From the IMG/VR virus record IMGVR_UViG_2600254977_000002: DNA of 8,063 nt. One strand, written 5' to 3'. Shown in pieces: positions 1 to 8,063 of this stretch (position 1 is its first letter; each line of letters begins with the position of its first letter). Position numbers and translations under genes: made by a program. The notes below the pieces were generated by a model. It saw only the letters and a program-made list of their open reading frames with translations, searched no databases and had not been told where the DNA came from. Origin of the DNA: a virus. Its lineage: Duplodnaviria; Heunggongvirae; Uroviricota; Caudoviricetes.

Positions 1-2595
1 GAACAGACCACCATCGCGCATCTGTGCCTGGATTTCATCACGGGCACCCTTGCGGGCCATGTCATACACCGCCTTCATCATCTGTGGACCTGGCAGACCA
101 TTCGTACCGTCGTTCTGAATCACCACGTTGTTGTTCTGCTCAAACCTGATACCCTCTGAACGCCGCATTTGCGCCGGACTTCCGGTGCCACCGACATAAC
201 CGCCGGTGGCATAGCCGCGCATCAGCCGGTAGAGATTTCCCACGCCAATCCGGCTGGTTGCCTCCTTCGTGAAGACAAATTCACCACGGTGAACAATCCC
301 CGCTGGCTCATATTTGCCGCCGGTTCCCGTAAATCCTCCGGTTGCAAAATGGAGTTTCGCCGCAGCGGCCTGAATGGCTGTACCGCCTGACGCGGATGCG
401 CCGCCACCAACAGCCCCGCCAATAGCGCTGCCGATACTCCCGACAATCCCCACCATTGCCTGCTTAAGCAGAATTTCTGTCATCATGGACAGCACGGAAC
501 GGGTGAAGCTGCGCCAGTTCTGTTCACTGCCGGTCAGCATCGCCGCCATATTCTGCGCAATACCATCAAAGGTCTGCGTGGCAGCACTTTTAACCTGCGA
601 CATACTGTCCGTGGCACTCTCTTCCCACTCACTCCAGCCGGACTTCAGGCCTGCCATCCAGTTCCCGCGAAGCAGGTCTTCAGCCGCCCTGGTCTTTTTC
701 TGCTCTGACATGACGTTATTCAGCGCCAGAGGATTATCGCCATACTGTTCCTTCAGGCGCTGTTCCGTGGCTTCCCGTTCTGCCTGCCGGTCAGTCAGCC
801 CCCGGCTTTTCGCATCAATAGCGGCCCGTTTTGCCCGTTGCTGCTGTGCGAATTTATCCGCCTGCTGCGCCAGCGCGTTCAGGCGCTCCTGATACGTAAC
901 CTTGTCGCCAAGTGCAGCCAGCTGGCGTTTGTACTCCAGCGTCTCATCTTTATGCGCCAGCAGGGATTTCTCCTGTGCAGACAGCTGGCGACGTTGCGCC
1001 GCCTCCTCCAGTACCGCGAACTGACTCTCCGCCTTCCACAAATCCCGGCGCTGCTGGCTGATTTTCTCATTTGCTCCGGCATGCTTCTCCAGCGTCCGGA
1101 GTTCAGCCTGAAGCGTCAGCAGGGCAGCATGAGCACTGTCTTCCTGACGATCGCCCGCAGACACCTTCACGCCGGACTGTTTCGGCTTTTTCAGCGTCGC
1201 TTCATAATCCTTTTTCGCCGCCGCCATCAGCGTGTTGTAATCTGCCTGCAGGATTTTCCCGTCTTTCAGTGCCTTGTTCAGTTCTTCCTGACGGGCGGTA
1301 TATTTCTCCAGCGGTGTCTGCAGCCGTTCGTAAGCCTTCTGCGCCTCTTCGGTATATTTCAGCCGTGATGCTTCGGTATCGCTCTGCTGCTGCGCATTTT
1401 TGTCCTGTTGACTCTGCTGTTCAGCCTTCTTTCGGGCGGCTTCAAGCGCAAGACGGGCCTTTTCACGATCATCCCAGTAACGCGCCCGCGCTTCATCGTT
1501 AACAAAATAATCATCCTTGCGCAGATTCCAGATGTCGTCCGCTTTCTTAAACGCAGCCTCTGCCTTAATCAGCATCTCCTGAGCGGTATCAGGACGACCA
1601 ATATCCAGCACCGCATCCCACATGGATTTGAATGCCCGTGCTGTCCTGTCTGCCCAGGTTTCCAGCGTGCCCATGTTCTCTTTCAGGCGTCGGGTCTGGT
1701 CATCAAACCCTTTCGTTGCGGCCTCGTTCGCCGCCTGCAATGCCCCGGATTCATCGCCGGAACGCTGCAACTGAGCAACATACGCAATCTGCTCCGCCGT
1801 TACGTTATGGAACTGGCGCGCCATCGCCGTCAGCCCCGACGTCGGGTCAGTGGTCAGCTTCCCGAAGGCTTCAGCGACCTTGTCCACCTCCACGCCGGAT
1901 GCAGAGGAGAAACGCGCCACACTCTGGCTGATGGATGCAATCTGAGCCTCACCGCTTACTCCCGCCTTAACCAGTGCGCTGAGTGACTCGCTGGTCTGGT
2001 TAAACGTCAGCCCTGCCGCCTGCCCGGCTCTGGACAGGACCAGCATACGATCTGCCGTCAGACCCGACTGATTGCCGGAAAGGACCAGCGTTTTGTTGAA
2101 ATCGGACAGGGTTGAGTTACCCTGATACCAGGCATACGCCAGCGCACCGGTCGCCACCGCCAGCGAGGTGGCCCCGACCATCGGCAGGGTGATCGCACCG
2201 GCAAGCCCCCGGAACATGGGGATCATCCCGCCGAAGGAGTCCTTAACCTGACCACCCTGTTGCAGCAGGATCAGCCACGGGCTTTGCCCGCCTGCAAGCT
2301 GCGTGGCCACGTCGGTGAACTGTGCAGGCAGCATACGCATGGCGGCTTTATACTGCCCGACGGAACTCCCCGCTTTCTGTGCAGCCAGCGCCNNNNNNNN
2401 NNNNNNNNNNNNNNNNNNNNNNNNNNNNNNNNNNNNNNNNGCCTGTCGGCTCAGCGACTGTTCAACGACTGCCGCTGTTTTTTTCGCATCACTTTCCGTA
2501 CCGGAAAAATGACGCCTGACTCTGGCCATCTGCTCGTCAAATCTGGCCGCATCCAGACTTAAATCAACGACCAGATCGCCTACCGGTTCAGCCAT
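1..2595 (-). CDS. H: Tail tape measure protein (lambda gpH-like); 3' end lies beyond window start; contains a 48-nt N block
   Basis: Hand translation from the ATG at 2595..2593 gives MAEPVGDLVVDLSLDAARFDEQMARVRRHFSGTESDAKKTAAVVEQSLSRQA, matching the recalled lambda gpH N-terminus. The reverse complement of 1..120 gives ...NDGTNGLPGPQMMKAVYDMARKGARDEIQAQMRDGGLF in the same frame (2595 nt = 865 codons), matching the gpH C-terminal region and stopping about 5 codons short of its end. No stop-terminated ORF in this frame appears in the ORF track across 1..2595. The start overlaps the T stop codon (2588..2590). Confidence 0.9.
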   Translation of the reverse strand, partial: MAEPVGDLVVDLSLDAARFDEQMARVRRHFSGTESDAKKTAAVVEQSLSRQXXXXXXXXXXXXXXXXXALAAQKAGSSVGQYKAAMRMLPAQFTDVATQLAGGQSPWLILLQQGGQVKDSFGGMIPMFRGLAGAITLPMVGATSLAVATGALAYAWYQGNSTLSDFNKTLVLSGNQSGLTADRMLVLSRAGQAAGLTFNQTSESLSALVKAGVSGEAQIASISQSVARFSSASGVEVDKVAEAFGKLTTDPTSGLTAMARQFHNVTAEQIAYVAQLQRSGDESGALQAANEAATKGFDDQTRRLKENMGTLETWADRTARAFKSMWDAVLDIGRPDTAQEMLIKAEAAFKKADDIWNLRKDDYFVNDEARARYWDDREKARLALEAARKKAEQQSQQDKNAQQQSDTEASRLKYTEEAQKAYERLQTPLEKYTARQEELNKALKDGKILQADYNTLMAAAKKDYEATLKKPKQSGVKVSAGDRQEDSAHAALLTLQAELRTLEKHAGANEKISQQRRDLWKAESQFAVLEEAAQRRQLSAQEKSLLAHKDETLEYKRQLAALGDKVTYQERLNALAQQADKFAQQQRAKRAAIDAKSRGLTDRQAEREATEQRLKEQYGDNPLALNNVMSEQKKTRAAEDLLRGNWMAGLKSGWSEWEESATDSMSQVKSAATQTFDGIAQNMAAMLTGSEQNWRSFTRSVLSMMTEILLKQAMVGIVGSIGSAIGGAVGGGASASGGTAIQAAAAKLHFATGGFTGTGGKYEPAGIVHRGEFVFTKEATSRIGVGNLYRLMRGYATGGYVGGTGSPAQMRRSEGIRFEQNNNVVIQNDGTNGLPGPQMMKAVYDMARKGARDEIQAQMRDGGLF
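2393..2440. other. Run of 48 N (unresolved or masked sequence) inside the tape measure gene
   Basis: Directly visible as n characters at 2393..2440. Its length is a multiple of 3 and the H reading frame is continuous across it. Confidence 0.99.
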
Positions 2596-3426
2596 ACCGG
2601 ACTCCTCCTGCGATCCCTTCTGATACTGTCATCAGCATTACGTCATCCTCCGTCATGCCCGCCATATCCGGGGAAGCGGGGATAACTTCATTCCCGTCCG
2701 GGCCAAAGCGGACGCCTCCGGTAAGCCCTGCCGCTTTCTGCATCAGCACATCATCTTCAGGCTCTTCGTCATCCTCACGCCGGTTCAGCAAACTGAAATC
2801 CAGCGGATGCATATCCGGATCGCTGAAAAACAGGCTGAGCACAGTGTACGTCAGCCCGGAAAAGTGCATATCCAGCAGAACATCATGAAAATAATGGGTA
2901 CTGTAAAAGCGGTGCCAGTCGGCATACTCCGTGGATGACATCCCGGCAAGCATGGCGCGCCAGTCAGGTCGCCCCATCTCTCGCGCCAGTTTCAGGGCAA
3001 AACTCAGCTCACCGTCGAACACTTTCCCGCAGAAACAGGCTCTGCAGGCCCGGAGTCCTCTGCCTGGTCAGGGGCATCATTCACCACAAACCCATACATA
3101 CCGGACAGCCGGTACACCACGTTTTCAGCATGAGAAATTGCCTCCGCGGGCCAGGTGGTAAGCACTTCCTGCTCAATCTGTTTAACGGCTTCATTCATGG
3201 AAGGCTGCTTTGTCTTCTGCGGATGGTTATGCCACAGGGACATCGCCACCACAAAAGCACCGGTTCTGATGGCGTCTTCCACAGTAACCTGCCGGTTGCT
3301 GTCTGACTCCGCCTGTTCTGCCTGCTGTTTCATCAGGGCGAGATGCTCAATACGCTGCAGGGCTGACAGTTCAGAAAGCGTGACGGTCACGCCGTTATGT
3401 TCAAATGATTCGGTTTTCAGGAACAT
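2588..3426 (-). CDS. T: Tail assembly chaperone G-T fusion (lambda gpGT-like), made by -1 programmed ribosomal frameshift at 3028..3022; T portion is 2588..3022
   Basis: The ORF 2588..3022 (MFDGELSFALKLAREMGRPDWRAMLAGMSS...) matches recalled lambda gpT. The T frame is -1 relative to G and has no independent ribosome-binding context. The slippery heptamer G GGA AAG sits at the G/T junction. Confidence 0.88.
3004..3426 (-). CDS. G: Tail assembly chaperone (lambda gpG-like), 140 aa
   Basis: MFLKTESFEHNGVTVTLSELSALQRIEHLALMKQQAEQAESDS...AGKCSTVS is near-identical to recalled lambda gpG. GGAGAG Shine-Dalgarno lies upstream of the ATG at 3426. Confidence 0.93.
   Translation of the reverse strand: MFLKTESFEHNGVTVTLSELSALQRIEHLALMKQQAEQAESDSNRQVTVEDAIRTGAFVVAMSLWHNHPQKTKQPSMNEAVKQIEQEVLTTWPAEAISHAENVVYRLSGMYGFVVNDAPDQAEDSGPAEPVSAGKCSTVS
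3022..3028 (-). other. -1 programmed ribosomal frameshift slippery site (GGGAAAG) for G to G-T
   Basis: Plus strand 3022..3028 is cTTTCCC, so the minus strand reads G GGA AAG in the G frame (codons 134-135, ...A-G-K-C-S-T-V-S-stop). After -1 slippage the next codon is GTG (3022..3020), the first codon of the T ORF. Confidence 0.85.
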
Positions 3427-3441
3427 CGCTGACTCTCCGGA

Positions 3442-4182
3442 TTAACTGTCGGTGACAGTGATTTCTGCAACCGCAGCAAGTTCACCATTACCGGATACAA
3501 CCGGAATGTTGACCTTGCCTGCAGCAACGCCGTTCACGGTGATGGTCATACCACTGACCGACACGGTGGCTTTTGTTTTATCCGCTGACACCGCACGGAA
3601 GCTCTTGTCAGTTGCGCCCTCCGGCTGGAAGGCCACGGTCAGCGTGGTGCTCTGCCCTTTCACCACCGAGGAGCTGGCAGGCGTCACGGTCATACCGGTT
3701 GCCGCCGTCACCGTACTGCGATCTTCTGCCATTGACGGACGGCCCACATTGGTGACCTTCACCGTACGGGTGATCACTTCCTTCGCCGTCACCGCCTTAC
3801 CGATACTGCTGACCCAGCCGCGGAACACATCGACCGTGCCGTTCGGGAAGCGGATTTTATAGGCACGGGTATCACCTTCATTAAACCACGCCAGCAGCGC
3901 CTGCTGCCCCTGCTCTCCGGGCATCCACGCCAGCGTGAAGCTGGTATCTCCGGCGGATTTCTGCCCCTGCCCGGTCGCGGTCCAGTCCGCATCTTCATCA
4001 TCGAGATAACTGTCGTCATAGGACTCAGCGGTCAGTTCGCCGGGCGTCAGGTCTTTAATTTTTGCCAGACGCGACCAGTCATTGTCTGAAAGCGGGTTTG
4101 CATAAGGGTCGCCGCTCCCGTTATAAACCCACAGTGTGGTCCCGGCCCCTTTCACCGGTGCCAGAGGATTTGGTGTTGGCAT
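3442..4182 (-). CDS. V: Major tail tube protein (lambda gpV-like), 246 aa, with C-terminal Ig-like (Big_2-type) domain
   Basis: From the ATG at 4182..4180: [33 protein letters not shown]...[23 protein letters not shown], near-identical to recalled lambda gpV. The track ORF begins at 4212, but the internal Met gives the lambda-length product. GAGGA Shine-Dalgarno overlaps the U stop. Confidence 0.94.
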
Positions 4183-4189
4183 ATCGTCC

Positions 4190-4585
4190 TCACATTTCAT
4201 AGGTAATGACATAAGTCAGATCGGCTGAACTCCACAGGCCCGCATCATCGTCGCGCCGGTAGTCATAGCCACTGGCCACCATACTGGTGATCAAATCTGA
4301 CAGTGCCGGGATATCGCTCATCACCGGATAAATCCGGGACTCCATCCACGAATCCAGCTCTGAATCCGGCACCTGAGCAGGCAGGAAAACTTCAATATGC
4401 AGCTCCGCCTGCCAGGTATCGCTGTCCAGCTCTTCGCCCGTGTATTCAGCGCCGGTGAGATAAACGGCAATTGCCGGAAAATCTTCCTCATCAAAAACAG
4501 CAGGGCGACCATCAAAAAGCGTCGCCCCGGTGTCATGCTTCTCCAGTGCATCCAGTACGGCTGCACGGAGTTCAGTATGTTTCAT
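4190..4585 (-). CDS. U: Tail tube terminator protein (lambda gpU-like), 131 aa
   Basis: [131 protein letters not shown] is near-identical to recalled lambda gpU. Its ATG overlaps the Z stop as ATGA (4582..4585). Confidence 0.94.
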
Positions 4586-5160
4586 CGCTTTATTACCATT
4601 CTCAGTTGATGCTGCAGCGCATAGCCCAGCTCTTTCGGAAGACGCTCACGCCGTATCCGCTCAATATTCTGTTTAAACGCCGTGGTCAGCGGCACCGCCA
4701 TCGGGATTTTCACCACATCAATGGGGTAACGGTTTTTCCCGGCCACACGCTGCATGACATGCCACCGGCCATTTTTCAGTTGCTGAATAAACGCGCCGGG
4801 AATACGACGGTTTCCCACCACAAGCACGCTGCCGCCACCTTTCAGGGATGAACGCTGCCCCTTTTTACGACGCCTGCGTCGGGACAGGACAACCCGCGCG
4901 TTACCCAGCCTGATTACGGGCAAATCCCCCCGGTTAACTTTGATTCTGGCCTGCGGATTTTTGACCGTGGCCCTTTTCAGCCTGGCCCTTTCCTTTACCA
5001 GTTTCCGGCGTACCTTTGTCTCACGGGCAACCAGTGACGCCGACTGCGATATCGCGGATGAAGCAACGCGGTTAATGGCCATTGCGGCGGCACCAGGCAC
5101 TGCCGTTTTGCTGATACGGCTGAGGTTTTCAACGGCCTGCTCAAGACCTTTTATGGCCAT
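4582..5160 (-). CDS. Z: Tail completion protein (lambda gpZ-like), 192 aa
   Basis: From the internal Met at 5160..5158: MAIKGLEQAVENLSRISKTAVPGAAAMAINRVASSAISQSAS...LRMVIKR, matching recalled lambda gpZ. AAGGGGGA Shine-Dalgarno lies upstream. The track ORF start at 5226 is an in-frame upstream extension overlapping FII. Confidence 0.92.
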   Translation of the reverse strand: MAIKGLEQAVENLSRISKTAVPGAAAMAINRVASSAISQSASLVARETKVRRKLVKERARLKRATVKNPQARIKVNRGDLPVIRLGNARVVLSRRRRRKKGQRSSLKGGGSVLVVGNRRIPGAFIQQLKNGRWHVMQRVAGKNRYPIDVVKIPMAVPLTTAFKQNIERIRRERLPKELGYALQHQLRMVIKR

Positions 5161-5171
5161 ACATCCCCCTT

Positions 5172-5525
5172 TCAGCGGCGACGGCTGGCGGCAGGTGGTT
5201 GCCCCCGGTTGAGCCAGAGATAACAACTCCCTCCGTCATCCGGAGAAACACGGTCCACCCAGAACATCTCGCCGTTAATGGTCAGCGTGTCACCACGCCG
5301 TACAGCACAAACCGTATCCGTAAGCACAAATAATGACGGGTTACTTCCTTCAATACGGATCCCACTACTGGCAAAACCCAGCGACTCCGGATCGTCAAAA
5401 ACGCCATGAACCTCGCCGCCACGCTGTGCACCGGAGGTGAACTGCGCACTGATGCCCATCACTTCAACAATCGTACTGTCCACCCCGGCAAGGGCGGCAT
5501 CAAAGGCATTCTGAAAATCACGCAT
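5172..5525 (-). CDS. FII: Head-tail joining protein (lambda gpFII-like), 117 aa
   Basis: From the internal Met at 5525..5523: MRDFQNAFDAALAGVDSTIVEVMGISAQFTSGAQRGGEVHGVFDDPESLGFASSGIRIEGSNPSLFVLTDTVCAVRRGDTLTINGEMFWVDRVSPDDGGSCYLWLNRGQPPAASRRR. It is collinear with recalled lambda gpFII and becomes increasingly similar toward the C-terminus (…FWVDRVSPDDGGSC…). The start overlaps the FI stop (5518..5520). Confidence 0.9.
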   Translation of the reverse strand: MRDFQNAFDAALAGVDSTIVEVMGISAQFTSGAQRGGEVHGVFDDPESLGFASSGIRIEGSNPSLFVLTDTVCAVRRGDTLTINGEMFWVDRVSPDDGGSCYLWLNRGQPPAASRRR

Positions 5526-5892
5526 AAACAGCCATTCCACCATCAACGTGTGTTTTTGCATCTGAGGACATAATCAGAATCACCCGACCAACATCCGCAA
5601 GCTCAACGGATTCCCCCGTTTCACCATCAACGCCACAGAGATGGAGGCAGGTCAGAACTCTGATGCGCGTTAACGCGCCGGATGTTTCCTCACGAACATC
5701 ATGAGCCGCGGTTTCCCGCTCCCGGATATCCATATTCATAACCTGTACATCATCGCCGGATGACTGCATTTCCTCTTCCCATTCTGCCACCCGCTGCGCT
5801 ATCTCTGCGGCACTCCCGGATATATCCGGCTCACGCCCCAGAATCAGGGCCAGTTCATCAAGCCGTTTCAGATTTTGCTCTTTCGTTGCCAT
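5518..5892 (-). CDS. FI: DNA-packaging / head completion protein (lambda gpFI-like), 124 aa
   Basis: From the Met at 5892..5890: MATKEQNLKRLDELALILGREPDISGSAAEIAQRVAEWEEEM..., resembling the recalled lambda gpFI N-terminus (MTKDELIARLRSLGEQLNRD...ELALRVAELKEEL). AGGGGG Shine-Dalgarno lies 6-8 nt upstream. The track start at 5940 is an unlikely upstream extension running through a hairpin. Confidence 0.85.
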   Translation of the reverse strand: MATKEQNLKRLDELALILGREPDISGSAAEIAQRVAEWEEEMQSSGDDVQVMNMDIRERETAAHDVREETSGALTRIRVLTCLHLCGVDGETGESVELADVGRVILIMSSDAKTHVDGGMAVYA

Positions 5893-5904
5893 ATCAGCCC
5901 CCTG

Positions 5905-5935
5905 TGAAAAAAGACACGGGGGCATTTCGCCCCCG
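5905..5935 (-). terminator. Putative intrinsic terminator or attenuator hairpin between E and FI
   Basis: On the minus-strand transcript: 5'-CGGGGGC GAAAU GCCCCCG-3' (7-bp GC stem at 5935..5917, 5-nt loop), followed by UGUC and UUUUUU (5912..5907). It lies 9 nt after the E stop codon and just upstream of the FI Shine-Dalgarno and ATG. Confidence 0.4.
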
Positions 5936-5943
5936 CTCACGGA

Positions 5944-6972
5944 TTATTTCACCTGTACCACCACAAACTCATCCGGGTCCGGCAACACCATCAGCGGCGC
6001 GGACTGCGTCATGGTAAATTCACGGGCGGGATCCCCTACCGTCAGCCAGTGTTTCGGATAACGGGAAGAGGCCACCACACCTTCGGACAACGCCTGAGCA
6101 TCCTGAATGGCACCGTAACAACGGATCCCATCTGCAGCAGTATTCCCCAGAACCAGCATGCCATCTGGAAGATAACGTTTTTCGATACCGTCTTCTGCTA
6201 TATAAGACGTTTTCGCCACCACAATGGCCAGATCGCCGTAATACCCCTTGAAGGACACCACTGCGCCCAGATCTTTCACTGCCGTTTCGAGTTGAGAATT
6301 TGAACCGCGACGGGTATCCAGTTTTTCGCGGAACAGCTTAAAACCATTCAGAAGACGCCAGACGGTACCGTCCATAATGGCAATATTCACAAGACCGCTG
6401 GCCAGGTCGCAGTAGAGGTCAATATCATGTGTAGGATCGAACGTGTCACGATCCTGTTTTGACCACTCCTTACCACTACCCTGAGTGATGTTATTCTTCG
6501 TCGACCTGCCAAAATCGACCTCAATTTTCTCGAACTGGTCTCCTTCCATGGTGTATTTGCCATACAACACAGCATTTACCGCCTGCATTTCTTCCACCTG
6601 GACAATCGCGTGCTCTTCCTGTTTGAGGTTATCGGTAATGATACGCAGACGGCGGTAAGCCGGATCATTCAGTTGAGATGGATCTTCACCAGGAAGGCGC
6701 TCAACCGCCTGCTGGTAATTAAATTCGTGTTTCGGCTTGACGTAGCCCGGACGCAACACGCGGGTTTCACCACCACGATGACGCAGCACTTTTCCTTCAA
6801 CAACCGGGGAGACATAGGCCGCCACCGGCGTTTTTCCGGTAATTTTGTCCAGCATCACCTCTTCGGTATGGAAATTCACCGTACGGCGGAAAAACAGCTC
6901 CAGAAACAGCGCACGAAATTTAACTTTTTGTTCGGTATAACCGAGTAACTGGCGGGTCGTAAACAATCCCAT
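5944..6972 (-). CDS. E: Major capsid protein (lambda gpE-like), 342 aa
   Basis: MGLFTTRQLLGYTEQKVKF...PGYVKPKHE...VEEMQAV...KLDTRRGSNS.LETAVKDLG...GDPAREFTM.QSAPLM...DPDEFV.VQ is collinear along its full length with recalled lambda gpE (341 aa), with many conserved blocks. AAAGGAAC Shine-Dalgarno lies upstream of the ATG at 6972. Confidence 0.93.
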   Translation of the reverse strand: MGLFTTRQLLGYTEQKVKFRALFLELFFRRTVNFHTEEVMLDKITGKTPVAAYVSPVVEGKVLRHRGGETRVLRPGYVKPKHEFNYQQAVERLPGEDPSQLNDPAYRRLRIITDNLKQEEHAIVQVEEMQAVNAVLYGKYTMEGDQFEKIEVDFGRSTKNNITQGSGKEWSKQDRDTFDPTHDIDLYCDLASGLVNIAIMDGTVWRLLNGFKLFREKLDTRRGSNSQLETAVKDLGAVVSFKGYYGDLAIVVAKTSYIAEDGIEKRYLPDGMLVLGNTAADGIRCYGAIQDAQALSEGVVASSRYPKHWLTVGDPAREFTMTQSAPLMVLPDPDEFVVVQVK

Positions 6973-7029: not shown

Positions 7030-7377
7030 TTACGGCAGCGCCGCGTGACTCAGGGCACTGCCAGCAAAGGCGTTGGCCTTTTTGTGTTCATCCACACTTT
7101 CAGGCCAGTGGATTGCCTCCGTCGCAAAGGTTCCCGACTTGTAATACGTCAGCGCCGTCTCTGTGCCTTCAAGCGGCAGTACCAGTATGCCAACCGCACT
7201 ACCGGCTTTCTGTCCGTCCCAGACCACCAGTTTCCCGGTGGCTTCATCCAGCATCAGGGGCGTCAGTGCCGGTGTTGGCGAGGAAATCCCGCTGCTGCCT
7301 GTGGCGGTATGAGCCGGATCATTACCGGCAAAAATACGTACTTCCGCACGCTGTTCAGTGATGGTTTTCGTCACCAT
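7030..7377 (-). CDS. D: Head decoration protein (lambda gpD-like), 115 aa
   Basis: MVTKTITEQRAEVRIFAGNDPAHTATGSSGISSPTPALTPLMLDEATGKLVVWDGQKAGSAVGILVLPLEGTETALTYYKSGTFATEAIHWPESVDEHKKANAFAGSALSHAALP shares the DPAHTAT...TPLMLD...WDG...VGIL...YKSGTF...AFAG blocks with recalled lambda gpD. Strong AGGAGG Shine-Dalgarno lies upstream. Confidence 0.92.
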   Translation of the reverse strand: MVTKTITEQRAEVRIFAGNDPAHTATGSSGISSPTPALTPLMLDEATGKLVVWDGQKAGSAVGILVLPLEGTETALTYYKSGTFATEAIHWPESVDEHKKANAFAGSALSHAALP

Positions 7378-7413
7378 ATTGTAAAAACCTCCTATTGATG
7401 GTCAGCACTGACT

Positions 7414-8063
7414 TCATGGCATGGCCATGAGCATTTTCACGTCCGCATCACCGTCTGCTGACGTCTGTGCCACGCCACCCTGTACCGCTGCCGGTGAATG
7501 GTTCGCCATGAAATGTTCAAACATGGCGGTTGTGGATGCAGAGACCGGTTCTGCCTTACCTGATCCCGCAGCCAGCACAGCCCGGGCGCTCTCCACTGTC
7601 ATTCCCGGGCAGGCAGCCAGCTGTTCAGCCTGCGCCTCAGCCCCTTTTGCCTCATCCAGTGCCATGATCTGATCACGGAGTGATGGTCCGGCATCCGCCT
7701 GCGGTGAAGCAGCCAGGATCGGGCGGGCTTTTTCCACCGTCATCTCCGGCATCGCCGCCAGCGTTGCCGCCAGTTGTTCACGACCGTTCGCTTCTTCACA
7801 CACCATAATGCGATCGGCTTCACTCTGCGTGGATGCCACCGGCTGCTGCGGTGCCGCCGCGGCCAGAATCGCCCGGGCCTGTTCAACGCTCATGCCCTGT
7901 TGTCCTGCCAGCATCGTGGCAAGCTGTTCACGTCCTTTCGCTTCCTGGCATGTCAGGATCCCCATCACTCGCTGGTTCTCCTGCGCGGCGGCTTCCGTTG
8001 CAGTTAATTGCGGCATAGTGCCTCCTCTGACATTACTGTTCAGCGCCGTGGCCATCACACTGA
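7414..8063 (-). CDS. C: C-terminal part of head maturation protease / nested scaffold (lambda gpC / Nu3-like); 5' end lies beyond window end
   Basis: The translation contains ENQRVMGILTCQEAKGREQLATMLAGQQGMSVEQARAILAAAAP, matching the recalled lambda gpC/Nu3 C-terminal motif ENSRIMGILNCEEAHGREEQARVLAETPGMTVKTARRILAAAP. The in-frame codon at 8061..8059 is AGT with no stop, so the frame stays open to the window edge. The stop is at 7414..7416. Confidence 0.88.
   Translation of the reverse strand, partial: SVMATALNSNVRGGTMPQLTATEAAAQENQRVMGILTCQEAKGREQLATMLAGQQGMSVEQARAILAAAAPQQPVASTQSEADRIMVCEEANGREQLAATLAAMPEMTVEKARPILAASPQADAGPSLRDQIMALDEAKGAEAQAEQLAACPGMTVESARAVLAAGSGKAEPVSASTTAMFEHFMANHSPAAVQGGVAQTSADGDADVKMLMAMP
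7567..7971 (-). repeat. Three tandem in-frame copies of a ~35-40 aa scaffold motif (IMxxxEAxGREQLAxxLAxxPGMTVExARxILAA) within C/Nu3
   Basis: Copy 1 is residues ~30-68 (7855..7971), copy 2 is ~83-117 (7708..7812) and copy 3 is ~130-164 (7567..7671) of the in-window ORF. The spacing is 47-53 codons, and the similarity is also visible at nucleotide level (e.g. GAAGCGAA[A/C]GG[A/T]CGTGAACA[G/A]CT). Confidence 0.8.

Follow-up and report, generated by a model that had tools for sequence, protein, structure and literature searches.

Three protein-level copies of a conserved, ancestrally single unit in the scaffold region of a phage 21-type head gene locus

The scaffolding protein Nu3 of phage lambda interacts with the capsid protein E, with itself and with the protease C in yeast two-hybrid assays, and is degraded by C before packaging (PMC3224144). 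In phage P22, a C-terminal helix-turn-helix of the scaffold binds the N-arm of the coat protein electrostatically, and in both P22 and the herpesviruses the capsid-binding element lies at the extreme C-terminus, with self-association upstream of it (PMC12005531). The lambda genes for gpC and Nu3 (NC_001416, 4418-5737 and 5132-5737) have the same layout as those of phage 21, i.e., an S49 protease and an in-frame nested scaffold between the portal and D/E.

The window, by which we mean the whole stretch of 8,063 nucleotides analysed here, is 99.8% identical in nucleotides over its entire length to OL657228.1, the complete genome of Escherichia phage 21 announced in PMC9119081. Its open reading frame at 7414-8063 (minus strand) matches the C-terminus of phage 21 gp5 with 100% identity over 215 aa (tblastn; M81255.1 and OL657228.1) and likewise the nested scaffold gp6, the Nu3 homolog; genes 5 and 6 of phage 21 and of the window show no substantial difference. 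Homology thus identifies 7414-8063 as a C/Nu3-type scaffold region and the window as carrying the head genes of phage 21, a classic lambdoid phage, the source being a phage-21-type prophage or phage. A run of 48 N occurs elsewhere in the window (2393-2440). The source paper of M81255 is presumably Smith & Feiss, Gene 1993. The features of the locus are the following:

7414 to 8063, minus strand: 3' part of gene 5 (lambda C homolog; S49 prohead protease and scaffold C-terminus), gp5 residues 287-501 and the stop codon; the reading frame leaves the window at its end.
8021 to 8027, minus strand: Shine-Dalgarno sequence GAGGAGG of gene 6, 4 nt 5' of the ATG; a ribosome-binding site is annotated at the corresponding place in M81255.1 and OL657228.1.
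7414 to 8016, minus strand: gene 6 (lambda Nu3 homolog), 200-aa scaffolding protein nested in frame in gene 5; CDS 5475-6077 of M81255.1, 'scaffolding protein' in OL657228.1.
7855 to 7980, minus strand: Tri1 unit (42 aa, ENQRVMGILTCQEAKGREQLATMLAGQQGMSVEQARAILAAA), 75.4 bits with the unit HMM; GenBank 'Tri1 box' at 7846-7949.
7822 to 7854, minus strand: linker 1 (APQQPVASTQS), low pLDDT at residues 57-62.
7705 to 7821, minus strand: Tri2 unit (39 aa, EADRIMVCEEANGREQLAATLAAMPEMTVEKARPILAAS), 79.1 bits; GenBank 'Tri box' at 7699-7809.
7681 to 7704, minus strand: linker 2 (PQADAGPS), pLDDT dipping to 67 in residues 101-110, the block with most of the linker.
7564 to 7680, minus strand: Tri3 unit (39 aa, LRDQIMALDEAKGAEAQAEQLAACPGMTVESARAVLAAG), 73.0 bits; GenBank 'Tri3 box' at 7555-7668.
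7417 to 7563, minus strand: C-terminal tail (49 aa), pLDDT 43-63, with a weakly conserved F/L-E/D-x-x-M helix.
7030 to 7377, minus strand: shp (lambda D homolog), head decoration protein, 52% aa identity to lambda D.
5944 to 6972, minus strand: gene 7 (lambda E homolog), major capsid protein and proposed scaffold partner, 62% aa identity to lambda E.

The S49 domain itself lies outside the window, because the reading frame runs off at 8063; in the same frame, PF01343 (Peptidase_S49) matches residues 146-293 of full-length phage 21 gp5 (E 3.7e-35). The gpC protease is reportedly the subject of Medina et al. 2010. Gene 6, whose product consists of the three units and the tail, has matches to PHROG 53, 8399 and 8940, and its candidate internal start reads GAGGAGG-CACT-ATG (8027-8014, minus strand, with the ATG at 8016-8014), as annotated in both phage 21 records. 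The D and E homologs are on the same strand, with gene 5/6 placed upstream of both. The original prediction that the head genes are the more diverged part of the module holds: window positions 1-5300 are 95% identical to lambda in nucleotides, and the proteins E, D and Nu3 are 62%, 52% and 26% identical in amino acids.

Translation of the minus strand of 7414-8061 places all three predicted peptides in one frame, which bears out the claim of three in-frame motif copies at 7567-7971. The number of copies stands, and only their boundaries had been set slightly short: the array covers 7564-7980, and the unit, slightly longer than first drawn, includes a conserved N-terminal helix (E-x-x-R-I-M) ahead of the EAKGRE motif, whose charged residues E10, K12, R14 and E15 are conserved. 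Units are 39-42 aa long, with the consensus E-R-x-R-I-M-x-C-x-E-A-K-G-R-E-x-L-A-x-x-L-A-x-x-P-G-M-T-V-E-x-A-K-x-I-L-A-A-A, and the region sits between the protease domain and the C-terminal tail of about 50 residues. In a self dot-plot (BLOSUM62, 25-residue window), the check that had been proposed for the repeat, the copies score 73 (offset 50), 64 (offset 47) and 62 (offset 97), against maxima with a mean of 29.0, a standard deviation of 4.1 and a highest value of 45 in 300 composition-preserving shuffles (z about 8-10.6). Compared pairwise by BLASTP, the units are 56-60% identical in amino acids (E 3e-7 to 2e-4 for a nominal database of 1e8 residues); they have 16 invariant alignment columns, in register among the copies, and all three score 73-79 bits with the unit HMM.

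The picture is different in the DNA, where the units are 54-63% identical, third codon positions match at 14 of 39 sites (near random) and the longest common exact word is 8-9 nt. Tandem Repeats Finder reported no repeat in 7300-8063, because the copies are too diverged at this level. Low nucleotide identity, near-random third positions and the empty repeat search therefore indicate that conservation acts on the protein. The repeat is present at the protein level only, and purifying selection at that level maintains each copy. Units are also better conserved than linkers: between phage 21 and Gifsy-1, identity is 76% in Tri1, 77% in Tri2 and 62% in Tri3, compared with 45% and 50% in linkers 1 and 2 and 29% in the tail. 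The protease and E of the two are 70% and 84% identical.

The triplication is already known, as the feature table of GenBank M81255.1 documents: it carries the Tri1, Tri and Tri3 boxes (5542-5645, 5682-5792 and 5823-5936) as repeat_regions inside gene 6, labelled 'function unknown'. Mapped onto the window, these boxes overlap the HMM-defined units and differ from them in beginning at the Cys/Leu just 5' of the EAKG motif, without the N-terminal helix. Of 5426 complete E. coli genomes, 1870 (about a third) contain the Tri region, at 2,922 places in all. Being old, common and annotated before, the triplication is not a discovery.

How old it is can be approached by comparing copy numbers across relatives. 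A search of 1.84e9 representative proteins with the unit profile gave 354 matches; one copy is found in 139 of the best 150 of these and in 52 of the 53 full-length matches (at least 380 aa). At species level, 30 genome loci, found with a 3-sequence alignment whose search patterns favour Tri-like units, comprise five with three units (Enterobacterales) and 25 with one, from Vibrio to Leptospira and Acidobacteria. The original prediction had noted that three copies in lambda would make three the ancestral state; since the family as a rule has a single copy and three are derived, this does not hold, and lambda C/Nu3 contains exactly one (79.6 bits with the unit HMM), as had been stated. One copy is thus ancestral and three are an old derived state of Enterobacterales prophages. 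Three units are found in Gifsy-1, Trabulsiella and Providencia too, so the triplication is not peculiar to the phage 21-type locus, and the array predates the split between phage 21 and Gifsy-1. Tri1 and the lambda unit are 62% identical (E 5e-11) and have a GIL insertion in common, by which Tri1 is identified as the ortholog of lambda's single unit. We consider both the identity with phage 21 and this evolutionary account to be nearly certain.

The tail after the last unit evolves fast yet is never missing, with 32-68 aa in 30 of 30 species-level loci at any copy number. It had been described as differing from that of lambda. It has indeed diverged, but it can be aligned with the lambda tail and is common to the whole family. 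A segment of the lambda tail (ALDRLM...PLAAG) considered as a vestigial second unit was rejected, as its counterpart in the alignment with phage 21 and other members is the tail helix.

Among close relatives, length classes correspond to copy numbers: 451/452 aa to two copies, 482 and 472 aa to a partial Tri2 (about 2.5), 501 aa to three and 551 aa to a possible four, the last in two single-contig clusters only. The possible four-copy locus L005 has N bases exactly where the junction lies and again at the corresponding position in the following copy. Variant junctions fall at microhomologies of 5-8 nt (GAAGCGAA, CACCGCAG and CTGGC). Judging from these junctions, copy number still varies among near-identical prophages by deletion or duplication at such microhomologies: E is identical at 342 of 342 positions in the two-copy and four-copy loci checked, where D is also 100% identical, and at 339 of 342 in the 482-aa locus. 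The two-copy variant L012 lies in a prophage whose capsid gene is deleted. The expectation that tandem repeats are recombination-prone is therefore weakly supported, in that copy number varies, but not as homologous exchange, given units that are 54-63% identical in nucleotides and junctions at microhomologies. Because variants with two and 2.5 copies exist, three copies may not be required.

Structure prediction had also been suggested, and AlphaFold2 gives three small three-helix modules, one per unit, on flexible linkers. Means of pLDDT over 10-residue blocks are 78-85 in the units (about 82-85 in Tri1) and low in linkers and tail; overall, the model, built from a shallow alignment of 43 sequences, has a moderate mean pLDDT of 70.6 and a pTM of 0.28. 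Each unit is thus predicted to fold independently, the modules being strung like beads via flexible linkers. Sequence and profile searches of PDB chains with the unit gave nothing below E 0.2, no structural relative of the predicted modules reached significance, small three-helix-bundle binding modules (protein A, GA, UBA and Ebh repeats) being among the candidates considered, and Pfam has no family for the unit, only sub-threshold matches to helix-hairpin-helix (HhH) families.

What the units do can be approached through their likely partners. We infer that they allow the scaffold to bind another protein, most likely the capsid protein, in a multivalent manner. The unit would be a protein-protein contact by which the scaffold, and the protease with the same C-terminus, co-assemble with the shell. 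The favoured partner would be the major capsid protein gp7/E, bound through its basic N-terminal arm in a contact that may be functionally analogous, with charge reversed, to the helix-turn-helix hook of about 40 residues in the P22 scaffold. With three units, every molecule of gp6 (and of gp5) would be trivalent, and thanks to the linkers the S49 protease could chop the scaffold into small fragments for removal. This mechanism of capsid-binding valency is put forward tentatively. A further reading, in which the Tri units are autonomous capsid-binding modules and the valency of both the scaffold and the protease packaged with it depends on how many there are, is possible but rather doubtful; taken as a whole, the explanation by identity, evolution and capsid-binding valency is evenly poised between right and wrong. 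On the side of capsid binding, gp6 is acidic (net -11; units net 0 to -3, with conserved acidic positions), gp7 is net basic over its first 60 residues, and Nu3 and E of lambda interact in two-hybrid assays (PMC3224144). On the other side, the portal, the protease domain or a further scaffold molecule would be just as plausible a partner, and the element that binds the capsid in P22 and the herpesviruses is the extreme C-terminus, which corresponds here to the tail.

The latter point leads to a reading in which the units are modules of homotypic or scaffold-core association (scaffold-scaffold or scaffold-protease) and the tail of about 50 residues binds the capsid. The three units would then make gp6 a core cross-linker and replace the protease-derived N-terminal segment of lambda Nu3, which gp6 lacks: lambda Nu3 begins in the protease domain and gp6 just before Tri1, both being of about 200 aa. 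The Nu3-Nu3 and C-Nu3 interactions of lambda (PMC3224144), the order of self-association and capsid binding in P22 and the herpesviruses (PMC12005531) and a tail found regardless of copy number all fit this view. However, AlphaFold leaves the three units unpacked against one another (at the low pTM of the model), and no part differs more between phage 21 and Gifsy-1 than the tail, despite capsid proteins that are 84% identical. Units for association, with a capsid-binding tail, are thus conceivable, but we do not expect this to be the answer.

Alternatively, the repeat could be mainly a processing cassette, a role compatible with binding, in which the L-A-A-A/S/G unit ends and the linkers are cleavage sites of the S49 (Ser/Lys-type) protease. 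Cuts at these places would turn a three-unit scaffold into peptides of about 45 residues, able to exit the procapsid. C of lambda does degrade Nu3 ahead of packaging (PMC3224144), and L36 (100%), A37, A38 and A39 close every unit across the family. The sole processing site annotated in the lambda record, that of the portal gpB, is cut after Ala22 (EYA/GY), and Tri3 ends in AA/GSG. Yet conservation spans the whole 39-residue unit, buried helix positions included, which is more than a cleavage site, and Pro, which most serine proteases accept poorly at P1', follows two of the three unit ends. We regard a primary role in processing as unlikely.

Still less probable is that helices B and C of the unit form an HhH that binds DNA non-specifically and, e.g., couples the exit of the scaffold to the entry of DNA. 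HhH families are the only recurrent Pfam matches (HHH_5 in 5, HHH in 3 and HHH_3 in 1 of 50 diverse units, best E 0.0014), and L-x-x-h-P-G-M-T-x-x-x-A-x-x-I-L resembles L-x-x-h-P-G-h-G-x-x-x-A-x-x-h-h. But every match is under the Pfam gathering score (HHH on Tri3 reaches 14.9 bits, E 0.025, against a cut-off of 24), T or S takes the place of the second hairpin glycine in 93% of units, the protein and its units are acidic, and lambda Nu3 is reported to be degraded ahead of packaging (PMC3224144). Chance or compositional similarity in an alanine-rich region (gp6 is 23% alanine), or a DNA-level repeat such as a cis-acting site (two CII-consensus pattern matches are marked here in the newer phage 21 record), is hardly credible and is refuted by shuffles that never exceed 45 against 62-73 observed, by the 16 in-register columns, by the DNA divergence described above and by a unit found in 354 representative clusters.

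If the units do bind the capsid protein and set valency, prophages with two, about 2.5, three and possibly four units would be a natural allelic series on scaffold valency, which could address head size, the scaffold:capsid ratio and the fidelity of assembly in a T=7 phage of the lambda type. From Enterobacterales to Leptospira, strong conservation in the Nu3 region is confined to the unit of about 40 residues. This unit bears on how lambda-type scaffolds touch the shell, and no solved structure matches it. Being strongly conserved, ancestrally single and polymorphic in copy number, it is an obvious target for binding experiments and cryo-EM.

Besides phage 21 itself, the described systems to compare include that of lambda, which has the same conserved unit and an alignable tail. 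It differs in having one unit instead of three and in the site at which the scaffold begins: the annotated Nu3 start (MDATRQMF...) falls within the protease domain, that of gene 6 immediately ahead of Tri1; the global identity between Nu3 and gp6 is 26%. The gpC homologs of Gifsy-1 (STM2605, Salmonella), Trabulsiella and Providencia have three units in the same order, each nearest to its phage 21 counterpart. Gifsy-1 and other Enterobacterales homologs are about 55% identical to phage 21 in the scaffold region, with a diverged and longer tail. The P22 hook, a helical hairpin of about 40 residues near the C-terminus that binds the coat N-arm electrostatically, may serve as a working analogy only (PMC12005531). 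It is a single copy at the extreme C-terminus and is basic, whereas the phage 21 units are acidic; the P22 coat-binding helix-turn-helix and the unit did not match in sequence or fold searches. The P22 scaffold is also recycled, not proteolysed. The herpesvirus genes UL26/UL26.5 have an unrelated protease family and are without a tandem module repeat. They resemble gene 5/6 in encoding a nested in-frame protease and scaffold with a common C-terminus, the part that the capsid protein binds (PMC12005531), and it is because this C-terminus is shared through nested genes that the herpesvirus protease is carried into the procapsid.

The window carries a late operon of the lambda type, with every long ORF on the minus strand:

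partial, minus strand: H, the tape-measure gene
minus strand: T and G
3442-4182, minus strand: V
4190-4585, minus strand: U
minus strand: Z and FII
5518-5940, minus strand: FI-like ORF, 140 aa from GTG (mechanical ORF call)
5944-6972, minus strand: major capsid protein
7030-7377, minus strand: decoration protein
7414..8063, minus strand: gene 5/6 ORF, open at the window end

By megablast, the whole window is 99.8% identical to Escherichia phage 21 (OL657228.1, 5262-13273) and to several induced E. coli prophages. The phage 21 alignment appears as '99% covered, 2 pieces' because of a run of 48 Ns at 2393-2440, within the H gene, which looks like masked sequence of the source record. In the phage 21 records, the FI-like gene starts at an internal ATG that has its own RBS and encodes 124 aa; the longer GTG start is probably not used. 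One GGGAAAG heptamer (3022-3028, minus strand) lies where the G homolog ends and the T frame starts, matching the site of the programmed -1 frameshift (G/GT) in lambda; a single match is no above-chance count across the window, and its position alone is informative.

The gene 5/6 ORF agrees with phage 21 gp5 at all 215 residues (100% identity), and full-length gp5 matches Peptidase_S49 (E 3.7e-35). The record M81255.1 ('Bacteriophage 21 head gene operon'), cited as an earlier fragment in the phage 21 genome announcement (PMC9119081), places gene 5 at 4572-6077 and a nested gene 6, with its own RBS, at 5475-6077. In the window, the internal start ATG is at 8016-8014 (minus strand), preceded by GAGGAGG at 8027-8021. 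The complete genome of 2022 (OL657228.1) names the products 'capsid protease/scaffolding protein' and 'scaffolding protein'. The original prediction had placed the motif in the C-terminal region of a Nu3-like scaffold, and this identity with gp5 and the annotated gene 6 bear it out. Three repeat_regions in gene 6 of M81255.1, all labelled 'function unknown; putative', coincide with the three copies (window = 13491 minus the M81255.1 coordinate):

7855-7980, minus strand: Tri1, gp5 residues 314-355 (HMM); copy 1, 'Tri1 box' at 7846-7949 (M81255.1)
7705-7821, minus strand: Tri2, gp5 residues 367-405 (HMM); copy 2, 'Tri box' at 7699-7809 (M81255.1)
7564-7680, minus strand: Tri3, gp5 residues 414-452 (HMM); copy 3, 'Tri3 box' at 7555-7668 (M81255.1)

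The triplication is therefore the Tri repeat already known and annotated in the phage 21 scaffold. Gene 6 of OL657228.1 also holds two matches to the 'CII binding site' pattern (ttgynnnnnnttgy) on the opposite strand (3051-3064 and 3285-3298; window ~7998-8011 and ~7764-7777), putative sites by consensus match only.

Three in-frame tandem copies had been claimed, and the minus-strand translation of 7414-8061 indeed contains all three quoted peptides in a single frame. Self-comparison (BLOSUM62, 25 residues) scored 73, 64 and 62 at offsets 50, 47 and 97, versus shuffle maxima with a mean of 29.0 ± 4.1 and a top of 45 (n=300). The units are 56-60% identical in pairwise BLASTP (E 3e-7 to 2e-4), and their alignment has 16 invariant columns. 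Each opens with a short conserved helix (E-x-x-R-I-M), which the limits first drawn had omitted. At the DNA level, identity between copies is just 54-63%, with 14 of 39 third positions matched and a longest common word of 8-9 nt, and Tandem Repeats Finder reported no repeat over the scaffold region. These observations establish the repeat as real and highly significant, and as maintained on protein rather than DNA. An origin by chance, by composition or at the DNA level is excluded.

In the wider family, a search of 1.84 billion representative proteins with the three-unit profile matched 354 clusters. Among the best 150 of these, a list skewed to multi-copy proteins, 139 have one unit, six have two and four have three; one unit was found in 52 of the 53 matches of at least 380 aa. 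In a species-level survey of 30 loci, three units occur in E. coli, E. albertii, Shigella, Trabulsiella and Providencia, and one in the remaining 25, including Vibrio, Marinomonas, Chryseobacterium, many Alphaproteobacteria, Leptospira, Acidobacteria and Desulfarculus. All 30 have a tail of 32-68 residues after the last unit. Gifsy-1 of Salmonella has three units, positional orthologs of those of phage 21: between the two, the units are 76/77/62% identical, the linkers 45-50% and the tail 29% (protease 70%, capsid protein 84%). One copy is therefore the ancestral state, and the triplication, as had been proposed, a derived one, older than the split between phage 21 and Gifsy-1; each copy is under purifying selection. 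Younger independent duplications occur elsewhere (P0129, P0132, P0272, P0165). One library protein, P0197 (258 aa), is a Gifsy-1-like scaffold with systematic replacement of Ala by Val and of Thr by Ile/Met, the pattern expected of assembled, translated C-to-T converted (bisulfite-like or deaminated) reads, and looks like a database artefact.

The feature is ancient and widespread, besides being already annotated. Two useful points remain: the unit makes up the conserved core of a so far uncharacterised scaffold family, and natural copy-number alleles of scaffold units exist. Of 5426 complete E. coli genomes, 1870 have the region, most best matches being full length, and close E. coli and Shigella relatives carry these variants:

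451 aa: Tri1/Tri2 hybrid plus Tri3
452 aa: Tri2 deleted
472 aa: Tri2 without its first half
482 aa: Tri2 without its last two helices
501 aa: three copies
551 aa: four copies
657 aa: 156-residue duplication

The exact 482-aa protein occurs in 3,592 indexed blocks of the sequence collection. Deletion junctions sit in microhomologies (GAAGCGAA, CACCGCAG and CTGGC), the first being the longest exact word common to Tri1 and Tri2. The rest of gene 6 is identical in DNA to the window at the 451-aa locus and differs at a handful of positions at the four-copy locus; capsid (342/342) and decoration protein (115/115) are identical to the window in both. In the only four-copy allele inspected (GCA_900537015.1, LS992828.1; 5313-5332 of the locus), an N directly follows ATGAC at the duplication junction and a second stands at the equivalent site in the next copy, which hints at an ambiguous consensus or assembly instead of a clean duplication. 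At the locus with the 452-aa allele (E. coli O157:H7 CP038421.1; 4301-5289 of the locus), the major capsid gene is cut to 88 codons and V follows directly; this prophage is defective, and some reduced-copy alleles, at least, therefore lie in decaying prophages. The 657-aa protein (P0001) comes from E. coli O145:H28 RM12581 / RM13514 (NZ_CP007136.1, ~1149728). Its duplication runs from the last part of the protease domain through Tri1 and Tri2 into Tri3, for a total of 5.4 units, and the second half carries another allele at the junction (RLTDELVN versus GLADELIN), suggestive of an exchange between two prophages.

The AlphaFold2 model of gp6 (43-sequence alignment; mean pLDDT 70.6, pTM 0.28) has three short helices per unit, e.g., 6-21, 30-37 and 44-53, with pLDDT of 78-85 within units (10-residue block means) and under 60-67 in the linkers and most of the tail. 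The predicted picture is one of independently folding modules joined by flexible linkers. Foldseek found no match to the model in the PDB, nor did sequence or profile searches match the unit to PDB chains, and Pfam has no model for it. The most conserved positions across 112 non-redundant units are E10 A11 K12 G13 R14 E15, A18, L21 A22, M27, A32, L36 and A38.

Protease and nested scaffold have their C-terminus in common: three conserved modules with linkers, and a tail. For lambda Nu3, interactions with E, C and Nu3 itself have been reported (PMC3224144), and the P22 scaffold binds the coat N-arm electrostatically through a helix-turn-helix of ~40 residues (PMC12005531); gp6 is an acidic protein (net -11), and gp7 is basic overall across its first 60 residues. 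The module would be the protein-contact element of the Nu3-type scaffold. These points lead us to favour, tentatively, capsid binding by the modules, three of which would make both scaffold and protease trivalent. Somewhat less probable is the main rival, in which the modules form the scaffold core and the tail is the part that binds capsid. The unit ends and linkers could possibly act as a processing cassette, consistent with the gpB cut annotated after Ala22 and compatible with other roles. An HhH or DNA-binding role is unlikely: HhH families are the only recurring Pfam matches, all sub-threshold.

The comparison with lambda shows a mosaic. Up to a boundary at ~5300, the tail genes (1-5300, H to Z) are 95% identical to lambda in nucleotides; from FII onward, amino acid identity is 64% (FII), 62% (E) and 52% (D), and 26% for Nu3, so that the head genes are, as anticipated, the more diverged part of the module. 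Lambda C (439 aa) has exactly one unit, ENSRIMGILNCEEAHGREEQARVLAETPGMTVKTARRILAAA, as the original prediction stated. Tri1 is the ortholog of this single unit, being 62% identical to it (E 5e-11) and sharing its GIL insertion, absent from Tri2 and Tri3. The tails were said to differ; they have diverged, yet can still be aligned by a weak h-[DE]-x-x-M helix and a P...G segment after it. Lambda Nu3 as annotated (733-1338 of the lambda locus, MDATRQMF...) has its start ~60 residues into the S49 protease domain; that of phage 21 gp6 (window 7414-8016) lies 12 residues before Tri1, and yet the two proteins are nearly equal in length (201 and 200 aa). The two extra units of gp6 may compensate for the missing protease-derived segment of lambda Nu3.
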